This document shows positions 52,482-58,093 of a stretch of DNA of 64,000 nucleotides, piece after piece. Positions within the stretch are counted from its first letter, which is position 1, and each line of letters begins with the position of its first letter. Made by a program: the position numbers and the translations under genes. The notes under the pieces are model-generated. The model had not been told where the DNA came from and made no database searches. It was given only the letters and a program-made list of their open reading frames with translations. Source of the stretch: Candidatus Bathyarchaeota archaeon (lineage in GTDB: Archaea; Thermoproteota; Bathyarchaeia; Bathyarchaeales; Bathycorpusculaceae); assembly GCA_963717465.1 (NCBI GenBank), contig OY970340.1, positions 352,001 through 416,000 on the forward strand, read 5' to 3'.

Positions 52482-53009
52482 GTGACTGTACAAACAATTA
52501 GAATGGAGCCAAATGAAGCCTTTTTGAAAATTAAAGAAGAACTAACCAAAAGAGGCTGCAAAATAATTTCAGACAACTTGCCTAAACAAATTATTGCTAA
52601 GCAGGGTTCCATTTGGGGATTGTCACCAAAAACTGCCCAAAAAATTGTGACAATAGATTTGGAGAAAGCTGAGTTTGGAACAAAAATAACATGTTCTTCA
52701 AAGTTAGGCAGCAGCTGGAAAAACTTGACAATAATCGGCACAGCCTTATCAATCGTTGTTGTAGGCATTTGCCTGTGGATCGCATACGACTTAAACGTGT
52801 TTTTAGCATCAAGACAGCCTAACTATTGGAGCTGGCTAATATCTGTTGGTGGTGCCGTTTATGTTCAAATAGCACAATCGCTTGTTTCCACGATGGAAAT
52901 CCTTGCCGTTTCACTTTCCAGTATAATCGTTTTCGAAACAATAATCGCTTTGTACGCACAACGGAGAGTTAACCTGTTTGCAGAAGAAATGCTAAGAGAA
53001 TTGAAGTAG
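52482..53009 (+). CDS. Hypothetical 2-TM membrane protein
   Basis: Soluble N-terminal domain plus two hydrophobic helices. Confidence 0.65.
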   Translation: MTVQTIRMEPNEAFLKIKEELTKRGCKIISDNLPKQIIAKQGSIWGLSPKTAQKIVTIDLEKAEFGTKITCSSKLGSSWKNLTIIGTALSIVVVGICLWIAYDLNVFLASRQPNYWSWLISVGGAVYVQIAQSLVSTMEILAVSLSSIIVFETIIALYAQRRVNLFAEEMLRELK

Positions 53010-53152
53010 ATAAATGCCGCTTTAAGGCAGTTTGGTAATCTTGAAACATGGTAGCAATCATAATTCCTCCTGTGGAAACAGTGGAGAACGATAACAAACA
53101 TGGCCCAATCAAAATACTTATCATTAACAGAGCTAACTATCTACAACATTAT

Positions 53153-53231
53153 GCGGTCGTCGTCTAGTCTGGTTTAGGACATTAGCCTTCCAAGCTAATG
53201 ATCCCGGGTTCAAATCCCGGCGACCGCACCA
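53153..53231 (+). tRNA. tRNA-Gly(TCC) with encoded CCA
   Basis: Acceptor GCGGTCG/CGACCGC, anticodon arm TTAGC-CT-TCC-AA-GCTAA, T arm CCGGG-TTCAAAT-CCCGG. Confidence 0.97.
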
Positions 53232-53352
53232 CTTTCTTAAAAAGCTGGATGTTGAATTTAGGAAAGACCACCAATAACCTTGTTTAAGTTAAAAATAGAC
53301 GTGTTTATAGCAACCTATTTACATTTTTTAAATTGTAAAATAAAATCTTCGC

Positions 53353-54012
53353 TCAAATAAGATGGTATAGGCTAATTGATACGGGCGTTGCGAAAGCAAA
53401 GAACGAGATCAAGATATGAGCTATAGCATTCCATCTTACTGATTCTGTTTTGAATGAAACTAGGCCGTAGACTAACCCTAAAGGAAGAGTTAACGCTATA
53501 AAGAACGGAGTTGCGGCTGTCCAGCTGATAAGTGAAGAAGAAACGTGTTGCACACTAAACCATAGTGTGGGATAAAGGAAAGATAGAAAAAGCTGGTTTG
53601 GAAAAGATTTGATGTAGAGACCTCGCCACAAAATTTCTTCGCCAGCCCCTGCTATTATCGAGAGAGGGACAGCGAGAAGAATTACTGGAAGAGGCGTAGT
53701 CTGAAAATTAGGAATATAATACATAAAAACAGAGCCTACAATTGTGCCCATCAATAATATAATCAAGTACCAGTTTTTCTTAGAGAAAAAGGGTGATTTC
53801 TCGCGGAAAATTCCTATAAAACCTTGTTTGCCCAACATAATTGAAGGAATAAGATAACACCAAACCGCCCAGTAAAAGGCAAATCCTATCACGTAACTCC
53901 AATCTTTTTCCAAAAAATAATTTGTTAATAGGAAAACCGTTGCTGTACTGGCAATTAGCAGAATTGGTAGTCCTAAGAGCAGAAATCGGCTTTTTGATTG
54001 TATGTTGGTCAA
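53353..54012 (-). CDS. CPBP/Abi (CAAX protease-like) intramembrane metalloprotease
   Basis: GEEILWRG, FSVQH and NAIAH; multiple TM. Confidence 0.85.
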   Translation of the reverse strand: MTNIQSKSRFLLLGLPILLIASTATVFLLTNYFLEKDWSYVIGFAFYWAVWCYLIPSIMLGKQGFIGIFREKSPFFSKKNWYLIILLMGTIVGSVFMYYIPNFQTTPLPVILLAVPLSIIAGAGEEILWRGLYIKSFPNQLFLSFLYPTLWFSVQHVSSSLISWTAATPFFIALTLPLGLVYGLVSFKTESVRWNAIAHILISFFAFATPVSISLYHLI

Positions 54013-54086
54013 GTCTGTGCAGGCTCCTAAACGCAGAATAAAGCTGTCGAAAAAAGTATTAATATCTTTTCGGAATGGCGGCATGG

Positions 54087-54141
54087 GGACATTAGCCTTC
54101 CAAGCTAATGATCTCGGGTTCAAATCCCGGCTACCACACCA
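54087..54141 (+). repeat. Direct repeat of the tRNA-Gly 3' 55 bp, att-like
   Basis: Matches 53177-53231 with 3 mismatches. Confidence 0.93.
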
Positions 54142-54235
54142 AATCATGCGTCTAACCATTTTTATCCATTTTAGAAACAGCCACGTGCATAAAATTCAGA
54201 AGTATCTTATACATCCTTTAACAGTGCCATATTTG

Positions 54236-55045
54236 ATGTTACTGAAGAAAGTAGTTAGCCCAAACCAGCTCAGCCAGTGCAAGAGATTTCTTGCCAAGGA
54301 TGTTGCAGTCAATGTGCTGATACTTGGCGATTGCTATTCCCCATTGTTACAGGCAAGTACAATATTTTACGCTCAAGAAGGCAATCGAATTCTCGGAGTC
54401 GGCTCGGTTTTCCGCGGTTTTCAAAAACCCAGCATAGCTCTCGGAGAAATGACTACTACAACAAAAAGAGCATTGCTCGAAAAGGCTCTGGAAAAAGTGG
54501 ATGATGTCTTCATTTCAATCTGTCCAAAAGACGAGGTCGAGATAATCAAGGAATACGCAACAGTCTTGACCGTTCACGATGAACACCAAATGGTAACCGA
54601 TTCACCCAAAGCAGTAGATGGCAATATTGAGGTTGCTAGGGTAAGCAAGTCCGAGTTTGAAGAGCTTAACAAATTCTACTTAGAACACCATGCAATAGCT
54701 TGGATACCTCTCCAGTTTAAGGTTGGCCCATACTACTGCATAAAACAGAACAAAAAAATAGTTAGCGCCGCTGGAGTGCATTTGTGTACGCCCAACATAG
54801 CGCACTTGGGAAACATAATCACAGATGAAGCATACCGAAACAGGGGATTCGGCACCGCTTGCACGAGCACTTTAACACATAATCTATGCACGGGAAGAAG
54901 AATCACCAGTCTCTATGTAATGGCTGACAACAAACCTGCAATCCACATGTACGAGAAACTTGGTTTCAAAAAAACACGCGAAATTGCATACGTAACTGCA
55001 CAAAAACGGCCTAACGCGGTCTCAAATCAGATTCTTAGGAAATAA
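54236..55045 (+). CDS. GNAT acetyltransferase, two-domain
   Basis: LGNIITDEAYRNRGFG and DNKPAIHMYEKLGF. Confidence 0.88.
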   Translation: MLLKKVVSPNQLSQCKRFLAKDVAVNVLILGDCYSPLLQASTIFYAQEGNRILGVGSVFRGFQKPSIALGEMTTTTKRALLEKALEKVDDVFISICPKDEVEIIKEYATVLTVHDEHQMVTDSPKAVDGNIEVARVSKSEFEELNKFYLEHHAIAWIPLQFKVGPYYCIKQNKKIVSAAGVHLCTPNIAHLGNIITDEAYRNRGFGTACTSTLTHNLCTGRRITSLYVMADNKPAIHMYEKLGFKKTREIAYVTAQKRPNAVSNQILRK

Positions 55046-55125
55046 ACATGGACAGTTGAAGCGCACATAAAAGATTGCTGAAATAATGAATAGAGAGTGT
55101 TTTGCTTGTTGTCGAAAAGTCGAGT

Positions 55126-55665
55126 TTAACTTGTTAGGAAAAGCTCCATCATGATCCTGTCGGCGTATGTTCCGTTTTCGTATTTTATGTCACATGTTAG
55201 TTTTCCGCATTCTTTAAAGCCGCACTTCTGGTAGACATGCATAGCTCGCTTGTTTGTTGAAAATACGGAGAGCTGAATGATTTCGAAACCGCTTTTTCTG
55301 GCAACTTCTGTAAGTTCTGTTATCAAAATTGTTCCCAGTCCGTTGTTGCGATAATTCTTATGAACGAAAATACCGAATTGTACCACATGTGCTTCTTTAT
55401 TCGCGCCAGGAATAATGCTTGCTCCTCCGGCAACTTTGCCGTCTACTCTCGCTACAAGATAGCGCATTCCTTTTGTATTGCCATCATCTAAATATTTCTC
55501 GGAGTCACTTCTGCCCACGTCTTGGTTCATCAACAAGTATTTATTTTCGTGAATTACGCTGTTTAAAACCTCAACAACTTCATCAATGTCATCTCTGCCG
55601 AACCAACTCAAAGAAGCTGCTTTTCCATTCTTTAAAGCTACATTCTTGTATAGCAAAGAATTCAC
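55126..55665 (-). CDS. GNAT acetyltransferase
   Basis: GIFVHKNYRNNGLG and NKRAMHVYQKCGF. Confidence 0.88.
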   Translation of the reverse strand: MNSLLYKNVALKNGKAASLSWFGRDDIDEVVEVLNSVIHENKYLLMNQDVGRSDSEKYLDDGNTKGMRYLVARVDGKVAGGASIIPGANKEAHVVQFGIFVHKNYRNNGLGTILITELTEVARKSGFEIIQLSVFSTNKRAMHVYQKCGFKECGKLTCDIKYENGTYADRIMMELFLTS

Positions 55666-55740
55666 TGCTCCCTATTTGATATTGACTTACTGATAAAGCA
55701 TCACATTTTTGCTTAACGAAAATGATGAAAGCCGAATCGC

Positions 55741-56211
55741 TTACAGCTTTTGAATGAGATTGCTCTGATTTGGCTTGAATCCCATCGCCTTGTATGCTGC
55801 GATAGCTGCGTCGTTTTGGACATCGACATTGAGATTTACGTATTCTATTTTATGTTCTTTCATCCATTTTAGAGCCTGTTTCATCAATGCTGTAGCGATT
55901 CCGCGGCGACGATACGCTGGAACCACGTACACAGCCATTATATGGCCAATCTTCCGAATCTCCATATGCGGGTAATAATCATTGATGCTGCATGCCAGAA
56001 ACCCGATTATGTCTTCTTCCTGTGCCACCAGTACAAGTCCATCCCCTGAAGTGGACTTTTCGATCCAATCCGTGATGTATGCAGCGCTTAGCTCAGACGC
56101 GTTTTCTCTTAGGCGATACATCGGACTATAAGAAGAATGCTGAATATCCAAGTCGTGGTTAAGTAAAGCTATTTTCTTTGAATCTTCAGAAGTTGCTATT
56201 CTCACGAGCAT
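55741..56211 (-). CDS. GNAT acetyltransferase
   Basis: VYVVPAYRRRGIA and NDAAIAAYKAMGF. Confidence 0.88.
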   Translation of the reverse strand: MLVRIATSEDSKKIALLNHDLDIQHSSYSPMYRLRENASELSAAYITDWIEKSTSGDGLVLVAQEEDIIGFLACSINDYYPHMEIRKIGHIMAVYVVPAYRRRGIATALMKQALKWMKEHKIEYVNLNVDVQNDAAIAAYKAMGFKPNQSNLIQKL

Positions 56212-56291
56212 TTCAAATCAATGTGAGATATAGGCTTATTTTCATTAAAAGCCTTTTAAGCGGAAAGCGCCAAAAAGTCAGTGGTGTTATC

Positions 56292-56900
56292 ATGCGTGCA
56301 CCTAGGACTCTCAACGATGTTAATTCGAGCAAAAGAAAACGATCTGCGAACCCTACAGTCATTACCCAGACTGCGAGACTAGAGTTGCGGGAGTTTCAGA
56401 AAGCTGATTGGGCAGATGTACATGAGTACGCTTCTGATCCGATTGTGACTCGCTTCATGGGTTGGGGACCCAACTCAGAAGAGGAAACAAGCATGTTTAT
56501 CCAGAAATCTATCGCTCAAAAGAATGAGAGACCCCGCATGAATTATTCTCTAGCAGTTGTGACTCGTGAGGGGAATCGACTTATCGGTGGCTGTGGGATA
56601 TACGAGTCAAACGTTAAGAATCGAGAGGGGTGGATTGGCTATTGTTTGAACCACCAGTTATGGGGTCAAGGTTATGCTACTGAAGCAGCGCTTGCACTCG
56701 TAGATTTTGGCTTCACGCATCTCAATTTTCATCGAATATTTGCCACTTGCGACCCAGCGAACACTGCATCGGCGCATGTTATGGAAAAAATTGGAATGCG
56801 ATACGAAGGACACCTCAAAGAAAACATTCAGCACAATGGAGAATGGCTTGATTCACTCTTATACGCAATACTTGACCGAGAATGGAAAACATCGAAGTAA
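56292..56900 (+). CDS. RimJ/RimL-type GNAT acetyltransferase
   Basis: TARLELR, IGY..WGQGYATEAA and NTASAHVMEKIGM. Confidence 0.9.
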   Translation: MRAPRTLNDVNSSKRKRSANPTVITQTARLELREFQKADWADVHEYASDPIVTRFMGWGPNSEEETSMFIQKSIAQKNERPRMNYSLAVVTREGNRLIGGCGIYESNVKNREGWIGYCLNHQLWGQGYATEAALALVDFGFTHLNFHRIFATCDPANTASAHVMEKIGMRYEGHLKENIQHNGEWLDSLLYAILDREWKTSK

Positions 56901-57044
56901 TCTTTTATGCGAGTAAACGCATGCTTTAGCCAAGCTAATCGACGCTAAACTTATTTCTGACATTTATTGCTGCAATCTTTCAAGTCCGGAGCAAGAGGTT
57001 GGCTTTCAAGTTAACAAGAGGATTTGTATTTTGATTTAGCGAGC

Positions 57045-57525
57045 CTATAATTTGCGAACCATATTACATATTATACTGGCTAGGCTTGAATCTCATCGCT
57101 GCCCAAGTTGAGATAGCCCCATCGTTCTGGACTGAGACGCCGATGTCGACATATTGGACGTTATTTTGTTTTAGCCAATTTAAAGCTTCGTTCAGCATTG
57201 CTGAAGCGATTCCTCTTCGAAGATATGCTGAAACCACATACACCTTTATAATATGACCCATCTTCCGAATTTCCCAATTAGGATTACTCCGCTCATCGAT
57301 CTTGCATGTTAGGAACCCAACTATATCCGTGTCTTGAGCGACGAGAACAAGCCACTCTGCTGAATTTGACTTTTCGATTTTATCCTGTAGATAAGCGATG
57401 GCAGCGTCAGATGTGTTTTCCTTAATGTGGTAAAGCGGATGATACGGAGAATGGTACAGATCCAAATCGCGGGCGAGTTGAGTCAATCGTTCGGAGTCTT
57501 AAAGAGTTGCTTTCCTTACAAGCAT
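57045..57525 (-). pseudogene. GNAT pseudogene, paralog of 55741-56211
   Basis: MLVRKATL*DSERL with TAA at codon 9; TAATATG duplication truncates the C-terminus. Confidence 0.82.
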
Positions 57526-57613
57526 TTTTGGTTCATGTTATTTTTGGTTTATTACATAAAAATTTGTGCCGCTTTCTTTAACGGCGCATTTTAACTCCAA
57601 AAAGCAAAGATGA

Positions 57614-57724
57614 CCTTCCAAGCAAATTATCGGGTTCATATTCCTTCGAACATACCATTTATTTTCAAAGGTTGGATGTTGAATTTACAAAGACAGCTAA
57701 AATGGTTTGTTTATGTTGAAAATA
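57614..57724 (+). repeat. Degenerate third copy of the tRNA-Gly 3' half plus its downstream flank
   Basis: ccttccaagc..cgggttca..acca..TGGATGTTGAATTTA..aaagac..ttgttta.gtt.aaaata parallels about 53186-53297. Confidence 0.75.
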
Positions 57725-58093
57725 ACCTTTTTCTAGGCAAAATTTTTCATTATCTTTCTTCTAAATTGATTTAAAATTGTTTAAATCTCTGCATCGTGCA
57801 GGATGTCAGTTCGAACTTCGAAGTAAACTTAAGGATACAGTTATAACAAATGCAGCATAATCACTTTATCATGTCAAGCGCTACTCACTTAACCAACATA
57901 GAACAAAAACAAAAGATAGATCAGAAAATAATGAAACAACTTGCTAAAATAATGGAATCATTGCCAAATATTGAAGATTAACACTAAATCTATTTTTTCA
58001 GCCATAGTTTTTTCGCTAAAAACTCGGCGTAATGTTGCAAAATTCAAAATGTTTGAAAATTTATAAATTGTGCGAGTTGCTTTAAGCTGTCTC

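Follow-up and report, generated by a model that had tools for sequence, protein, structure and literature searches.

How does a row of small accessory genes come to stand behind a tRNA gene, divided by pieces of that tRNA, with no integrase beside it? The question is raised by the tRNA-Gly(TCC) locus of a Candidatus Bathyarchaeota archaeon (GenBank assembly GCA_963717465.1, genome 88% complete), a member of the Bathyarchaeia, abundant and mostly uncultured archaea of sediments and soils in which the gain of accessory genes has been little studied. The window analyzed here is a 64,000-nt stretch, positions 352001-416000 of one 3.05-Mb contig (OY970340.1), and coordinates refer to this window unless contig positions are named. 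Within it, tRNA-Gly(TCC) is followed by two gene-bearing units, each closed by a 3' piece of the tRNA. The locus is probably a small additive genomic island formed by two successive insertions at the tRNA 3' end, in which units devoid of an integrase were integrated by a tyrosine recombinase acting in trans.

Anatomy of the tRNA-Gly(TCC) array

The intact tRNA-Gly(TCC) gene (53153-53231, plus strand), the insertion target, is the only tRNA called by ARAGORN in the window. The boundary between units 1 and 2, copy 2 (54087-54141, plus strand), lies 910 nt from it and repeats tRNA positions 25-79 over 55 nt with 3 mismatches (95% identity; BLAST against the whole genome, E 1e-17), and of the three Gly tRNAs in the genome it most resembles Gly(TCC). 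Copy 3 (57614-57657, plus strand), the right boundary of unit 2, is a decayed version of positions 34-79 that differs from the tRNA by 9 mismatches and a 2-nt gap in the whole-genome BLAST alignment (76% identity). Past the tRNA end the copy 3 match extends for a further ~110 nt (74% over 127 nt, E 3.5e-11), a feature overlooked in the first-pass annotation of this DNA. It pairs the ~110-nt trailer X1 (53232-53339, plus strand), the left end of unit 1, with its homologue X3 (57658-57765, plus strand), which may be either a host trailer of earlier date or an arm that belonged to an older unit. The X1-X3 alignment reaches a z-score of 15.8, whereas the trailer and the sequence after copy 2 are unrelated (z 1.3). 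In 120 genomes of the genus, the sole match to X1 longer than 36 nt was its own second copy. Two readings of X1, as the degraded end of an int(N) gene and as an arm of wide occurrence, were discarded, the best z-score among the flanks of relatives being 3.5 and none of the matches in the 119 other genus genomes being convincing.

That such pieces are not chance matches was controlled with local-alignment peaks against the 3' 55 nt of the tRNA in the 5 kb behind tRNA-Gly, in the window and in 57 relatives: peaks scoring at least 28 numbered 12 of 2040 on the same strand (two of them from the window) versus 0 of 2017 on the opposite strand. A 10-nt anticodon-arm match near 56930, seen by eye, was too short to be taken as a further boundary.

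Unit 1 (910 nt) holds a single gene on the minus strand, encoding a CAAX (Rce1-like) membrane protease (53353-54012; PF02517). Unit 2 (3516 nt) holds five acetyltransferase genes of the GNAT family in the strand order + - - + -: GNAT 1, with an FR47-like C-terminal domain and an inferred start codon (54236-55045), GNAT 2 (55126-55665), GNAT 3 (55741-56211), GNAT 4, of the Acetyltransf_3 type (56292-56900), and GNAT 5 (57064-57525), the GNAT domains of all five being assigned by Pfam. Thus, the succession of tRNA, CAAX unit, 55-bp copy, GNAT genes in mixed orientation and degenerate copy that had first been read from the letters was confirmed by ARAGORN, BLAST and Pfam.

The CAAX gene appears whole, with a probable start at TTG 54012 as judged from the length of its homologues (222-233 aa, 39-61% identical), and lies ~75 nt from one boundary of its unit and 120 nt from the other. 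It is rare, being found in 3 of 201 genomes of the family, this one included; the two homologous family loci have no tRNA piece within 1.5 kb, and none of 126 pattern matches among CAAX neighbors in metagenomes was confirmed. GNAT 2 has homologues in many genomes of the genus and GNAT 3 in 6 of 120, this one included. GNAT 5 is a paralogue of GNAT 3 (53% at the amino acid level; 67% at the DNA level over 447 nt) with an in-frame TAA at codon 9 and a shorter frame open from TTG 57486. Among compared loci, which carry L-numbers as labels, GNAT homologues are enclosed by a tRNA and its piece at Gln(TTG) in L071 and Lys(CTT) in L089, and are located beyond Leu(TAG) pieces in L077 and L079 and ~3.5 kb from Val(TAC) in L073 and L074. 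In the DNA retrieved for the other 14 of 20 GNAT-homologue loci, several of which are short contigs, neither an intact tRNA nor a clear 3' piece was seen. Most GNAT homologues can thus not be shown to be cassette-borne, and GNAT cargo, to which the first-pass annotation had appealed, is no argument for an integron. The cargo of the window is ordinary.

Consistent with the first-pass statement that no recombinase lies nearby, none was found among the 20 window ORFs (open reading frames) scanned with Pfam. The genome has four PF00589 matches, beside tRNA-His, Val(TAC), Lys(TTT) and Ala(GGC), and two split-integrase remnants, at Pro(TGG) and near Gln(TTG), all at least 300 kb from tRNA-Gly(TCC); the integrase next to tRNA-His is the only complete-looking one, as judged by eye from the translations. 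Neither PF16795 nor a serine recombinase or resolvase was matched in the genome, and no intN or intC remnant was detected in either unit by tblastn, by a six-frame search with hidden Markov models or in the antisense translation. Since the genome is 88% complete, an integrase gene may be missing from it.

Several further observations concern the locus itself. A hairpin with a T-run lies on the minus strand at 57568-57585, 30 nt inside copy 3. Intergenic folding z-scores range from -0.9 to 1.2 in the array, except for one hairpin stretch at -3.3, no stretch having the fold of an attC site, and scans with sigma-70 promoter and terminator models, which are ill-suited to archaea, gave chance-level results. 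This locus (52482-53152, 57766-58070) lacks the core genes found on either side of tRNA-Gly in most relatives (2-3 kb upstream; 9-12 kb downstream before hypA).

Variation at this tRNA in relatives and at other tRNAs

The comparison covered 59 loci of the genus; with L048 and L049 excluded, 57 Gly(TCC) loci remained. As the first-pass annotation had anticipated, the cargo varies among these 57: the genes behind tRNA-Gly differ widely, ahead of a conserved anchor, and the upstream neighbors are conserved in most loci. A clear downstream piece is present in 9 of the 57, with weak remnants in a few more, and in 5 of these 9 loci the pieces close integrase-less units. In 4 of the 57 relatives, the piece abuts an intC frame (L043, twice; L104; L110; L130), and an intN frame stands behind the tRNA in L043, L110 and L130. 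Two intC frames were scanned, one from L043 and one from the metagenome locus L207, and both matched PF16795. The integrases at tRNA-Gly of relatives are thus SSV-type split integrases, which the first-pass annotation had advised looking for elsewhere, and the attachment (att) site of these elements begins at tRNA position 29-35. In viral contigs, the exact att pattern had no match, and one intC query yielded no confirmed relative.

Growth at this tRNA is polarized. The tRNA and unit of L118 align with the piece and unit of L121 (73%), and likewise the tRNA and vapBC of L038 with the piece and vapBC of L031 (73%); in addition, L038 and L097 carry different cargo ahead of the same downstream gene. 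The boundary of the L038 cassette forms a decay series, from a near-whole tRNA (positions 7-79) in L038 through positions 18-79 in L096 and ~20 nt in L032 and L094 to none in L092, hence this cassette is old and probably inherited. Cassettes shared between species are 72-84% identical, the lone 99% match occurring in near-identical backgrounds.

Among 119 metagenome loci, many of them short (39 with only 300-nt flanks), 7 have a downstream piece. One of these comparisons is close: L207 and L031 are ~98% identical in three blocks, yet differ by whole integrase-less units. Common to both is a 0.78-kb gene pair, which, from its sequence, we take to be a candidate MNT-HEPN toxin-antitoxin pair. 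In front of this pair, only L031 carries a 5.8-kb unit that ends in a perfect 17-nt repeat and gave no integrase match to the queries used; behind the pair, it also has an additional vapBC stretch without a detectable boundary piece. The piece that closes the shared pair shows 3 mismatches to the Gly(GCC) tRNA of the genome under study, 5 to its Gly(CCC) and 5 plus a gap to its Gly(TCC); it thus arrived with the cassette. Perfect 16-17-nt repeats are found at L031, L152 and L212; together with this Gly(GCC)-like piece, they bear the mark of site-specific recombination.

The tRNA-Gly(TCC) genes of the relatives show peculiarities of their own. A 25-29-nt insertion near position 32 is present in L142, L155, L196, L207 and L050 and absent in most others, including L031, which is otherwise near-identical to L207. 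Moreover, upstream of tRNA-Gly in many relatives, L031, L035, L041 and L047 among them, there is another int(N)-like frame, on the sense strand, that runs into the tRNA 5' end, although its count is soft because the queries include the translation of the tRNA itself; in L035, a matching 5' piece and an intC lie 4 kb upstream.

Pieces are not confined to this tRNA. In a survey of the 48 tRNA entries of the genome, which left out two doubtful ARAGORN calls, 12 are followed within 10 kb by a 3' piece on the same strand, versus 3 upstream pieces (2 of them an artefact of the duplicated Thr(GGT) gene) and 2 opposite-strand pieces as controls. The smallest units mostly carry toxin-antitoxin genes: PIN/VapC pairs at Leu(GAG) and Val(GAC), ParE at Val(GAC), and HicAB between two complete Thr(GGT) genes. 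Also among the smallest units are one with Fic plus a glycosylase, at Ser(GCT), and one with Mrr, at Leu(CAA). Matches in the trailer recur at Val(GAC) and Ala(TGC). The claim that divergence increases with distance from the tRNA describes the two copies of the window (95% and 76%) but fails as a rule: the Leu(GAG) pieces run in reverse (86% identity near, 96% far) and those of Val(GAC) are flat, so an age gradient was rejected as a general principle. A conserved left arm lies 5' of short tRNA pieces at L211 and at the Cys and Ala(TGC) boundaries of the genome (by alignment), and also at its Arg(ACG) and Pro(GGG) boundaries (by eye); its presence or absence suggests two classes of cassette.

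The vapC gene of the Leu(GAG) array offers a view of one cassette across genomes. Of its 30 best loci, that of this genome included, 18 have a tRNA or piece within 1.5 kb, versus 3 of 57 control windows; of these three, one results from an artefact of slicing and another is a genuine 5' att. This vapC cassette keeps its Leu piece at differing distances from the tRNA and in two genomes follows Leu(TAA) immediately. It also occurs in rows: in L342 (genome G084), L343 (G123) and L344 (G016), successive toxin-antitoxin cassettes end in degenerate pieces of Arg, Cys, Leu and Val tRNAs; in L342 and L344, no intact tRNA was called in 19 kb. The short repeats begin at the T-loop.

Other tRNA-linked features of this genome were also recorded. 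An orphan, perfect 35-nt copy of the Gly(TCC) 3' end lies at contig 1131175-1131209, 726 kb from the gene and ~42 kb from Ala(TGC), between two Ala(TGC) pieces and with no integrase beside it. The ARAGORN calls 'Cys' and 'Ile' at contig 295325-295430 and 2316394-2316504 read as Gly(CCC) and Gly(GCC), respectively, each with an intron on the 5' side of the anticodon arm. At tRNA position 43, an intron-like 35-nt insertion interrupts the right att of the Val(TAC) element (contig 916568-916658, L270). Finally, a 14-kb island at Arg(ACG) (contig 1386478-1400464, L269) has a perfect 26-nt att and no integrase match; its genes include that of a Piwi-domain protein flanked by two helicases, together with an HNH/AAA pair and a Vsr-like nuclease.

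Origin of the units

In the proposed mechanism, each unit would enter most likely as a circle carrying a tRNA piece, and one crossover would restore the tRNA gene and leave the piece at the distal end of the unit, so that older DNA would be pushed away and the array would grow at its tRNA-proximal end. The GNAT unit would have come first and the CAAX unit second, an order drawn from the polarity in relatives and the identities of the two pieces. Both units were most likely integrase-less on arrival; their recombination was probably the work of a tyrosine recombinase from another element, one with its att sites in tRNA genes. The anatomy of the array, the variation and polarity among relatives and the occurrence of integrase-bearing elements at this tRNA in relatives are observed directly, whereas circular intermediates, action in trans and the succession of the two insertions in this genome are inferred. 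The X1-X3 match would be explained if unit 1 derived from the chromosome of a relative and brought along the DNA that followed the tRNA there, or if X were an arm shared by a small family of elements.

Several observations weigh against this account. X1 matches X3 and not the sequence behind copy 2, which calls for the added assumption that unit 1 carries a host-like trailer, and the two boundaries of the window are without the conserved left arm seen at five others. None of the integrases in this genome has a traceable link to tRNA-Gly, and no empty site bearing the genome's own flanks was found. Most relatives have variable cargo without a detectable piece (a piece being present in 9/57), and 12 of the 30 vapC loci are without tRNA or piece. 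Lastly, the near-whole tRNA duplications (positions 3-78 in L038; positions 1-78 at Thr(GGT)) exceed the att of the integrase-bearing elements.

A wider proposal, which we advance tentatively and consider possible although short of an even chance, is that the genus keeps a pool of minimal, never-autonomous cassettes, each a single gene or toxin-antitoxin pair with its tRNA piece, moved in trans by the tyrosine recombinases of passing elements, the tRNAs serving as an integron-like, multi-site capture system without IntI or attC. The T-arm is the part most alike among tRNAs, and crossover there would let a cassette change its target. The observations that point this way are the vapC family at both Leu(GAG) and Leu(TAA), the rows of mixed tRNA pieces, the Gly(GCC)-like piece at Gly(TCC) and the repeats that begin at the T-loop.

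The strongest competitor of capture in trans is that the units are leftovers, after deletions, of larger integrase-bearing elements, either SSV-type or with the integrase next to the tRNA. Such elements do occupy this tRNA in the four relatives described above, integrase remnants lie beside other tRNAs of this genome, and tycheposon islands accumulate degenerate remnants, as passages of the source describe (10.1101/2020.12.28.424599). Decay can even be followed in L102, where cargo of the L104 element survives along with a remnant of 47 residues of its intC; however, L102 lost its att and kept an integrase scar, the reverse of the window, where the pieces are present and neither unit contains an intN or intC remnant. 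Because a split integrase abuts both ends of its element, two clean deletions per unit would be required, and many independent units are tightly trimmed, as illustrated by the whole CAAX gene. We therefore regard deletion from larger elements as unlikely.

Somewhat less likely still is a homology-driven route, in which small circles bearing the tRNA gene together with its trailer and a neighboring gene would enter by a single crossover made by host RadA or a low-specificity integrase, dedicated att chemistry then being unnecessary. This would account for the X1-X3 match, the trailer matches at Val(GAC) and Ala(TGC) and the near-whole tRNA duplications, and the boundary that decays from near-full to absent along L038, L096, L032/L094 and L092 is in line with it. 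The pTN3 integrase recombines identical segments down to 104 bp, according to parts of PMC8371274; the same portions record att sites of more than 100 bp in Thermococcales elements, so long matches do not exclude integrases. Homology leaves unexplained the perfect 16-17-nt repeats and the piece derived from a different Gly tRNA. Repeats this short, and a piece this divergent, lie beyond the reach of homologous recombination. Site-specific and homology-driven routes may both be operating in the genus.

An origin without any mobile unit, by tandem duplication in place or as an assembly error, would fit the GNAT 3/GNAT 5 paralogues and the duplicated tRNA end and trailer, but the copies differ (95% and 76%) and flank unrelated genes, and pieces recur with other cargo in independent assemblies and at other tRNAs, which makes this very improbable. 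Hardly credible is a true integron, or an integron-integrase-less attC cluster (CALIN), standing behind the tRNA by chance: archaeal integrons exist, as parts of PMC9668308 report, and GNAT and toxin-antitoxin cargo and polarized addition are integron-like, but the genome has no IntI over the cut-off (TIGR02249 best score 40.9 bits versus 265), a simple motif scan gave no RYYYAAC...GTTRRRY attC pair 35-130 nt apart at 53231-57800 on either strand, the genes run both ways and the boundaries are tRNA pieces.

Comparison with known systems

Were sub-kilobase cassettes to pass from one tRNA gene to another with borrowed integrases, toxin-antitoxin pairs and single enzymes could spread without transposases, and a large part of the archaeal mobilome would escape island finders that require an integrase. 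As an example, the window is modest; the interesting part is the proposed genus-wide cassette pool.

CIMEs (cis-mobilizable elements) of streptococci are integrase-less, att-flanked units stacked at one site, interpreted as decayed integrative and conjugative (ICEs) or mobilizable elements (IMEs) that are moved by an adjacent element. The units of the window are similar in being flanked by attL and attR and lacking an integrase; unlike CIMEs, they have no integrase-bearing element beside them. Another parallel is provided by the dif modules of Acinetobacter plasmids, described in PMC6449649 as small accessory modules between recombination sites, without a recombinase of their own; there the sites are plasmid dif sites used by Xer, whereas here they are chromosomal tRNA pieces.

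With integrons and CALINs, the array shares the form of a polarized row of small accessory units, added at one end as observed in relatives. It differs from them, by the definitions contained in parts of PMC9668308, in having no IntI, attI or attC, in its mixed gene orientation and in its multi-gene units. It is therefore integron-like in outcome and not an integron: of the earlier idea of an integron-like platform, the repeated, polarized capture of small integrase-less units stands, as it recurs in relatives, and the integron membership falls away.

SSV-type elements with suicidal integrases use the same type of target and, by occupying this tRNA in relatives, are candidate donors of the enzyme (described in portions of PMC7253208 and PMC8371274), but the window has no int(N) and int(C) split by att, as present in L043, L110 and L130. 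Tandem insertion of suicidal-integrase elements was not seen in the Thermococcales data set, according to passages of PMC7253208; L043, unlike that data set, has two intC-bearing boundaries behind one tRNA-Gly. Arrays of archaeal tyrosine-recombinase elements at one tRNA are known, and the smallest integrated element of a survey of Thaumarchaeota was 2.6 kb, with its own integrase, as given in parts of PMC6563490. A literature search that took in few subscription papers and no supplements found no description of sub-kilobase, integrase-less tRNA cassettes in Bathyarchaeia.

Closer in architecture are the tycheposons of Prochlorococcus, in which newcomers push older elements inward and partial tRNAs remain; as portrayed in passages of 10.1101/2020.12.28.424599, these carry an integrase, whereas the units of the window have neither an integrase nor a remnant of one. 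Closest are the additive flexible genomic islands, and the array is one by the definition given in parts of PMC4898812 and PMC7771536: a tRNA hot spot at an equivalent position carries differing sets of cassettes. Those islands, as the same passages describe them, belong to marine bacteria (Alteromonas, Ca. Actinomarinales) and hold multi-gene cassettes such as metal-resistance clusters, whereas here the host is an archaeon and the units go down to 0.6-0.9 kb, with one gene or one toxin-antitoxin pair. Accretion at tRNA genes has already been published for bacteria; the array is a real feature, a new and miniature archaeal form of the tRNA-anchored additive island.

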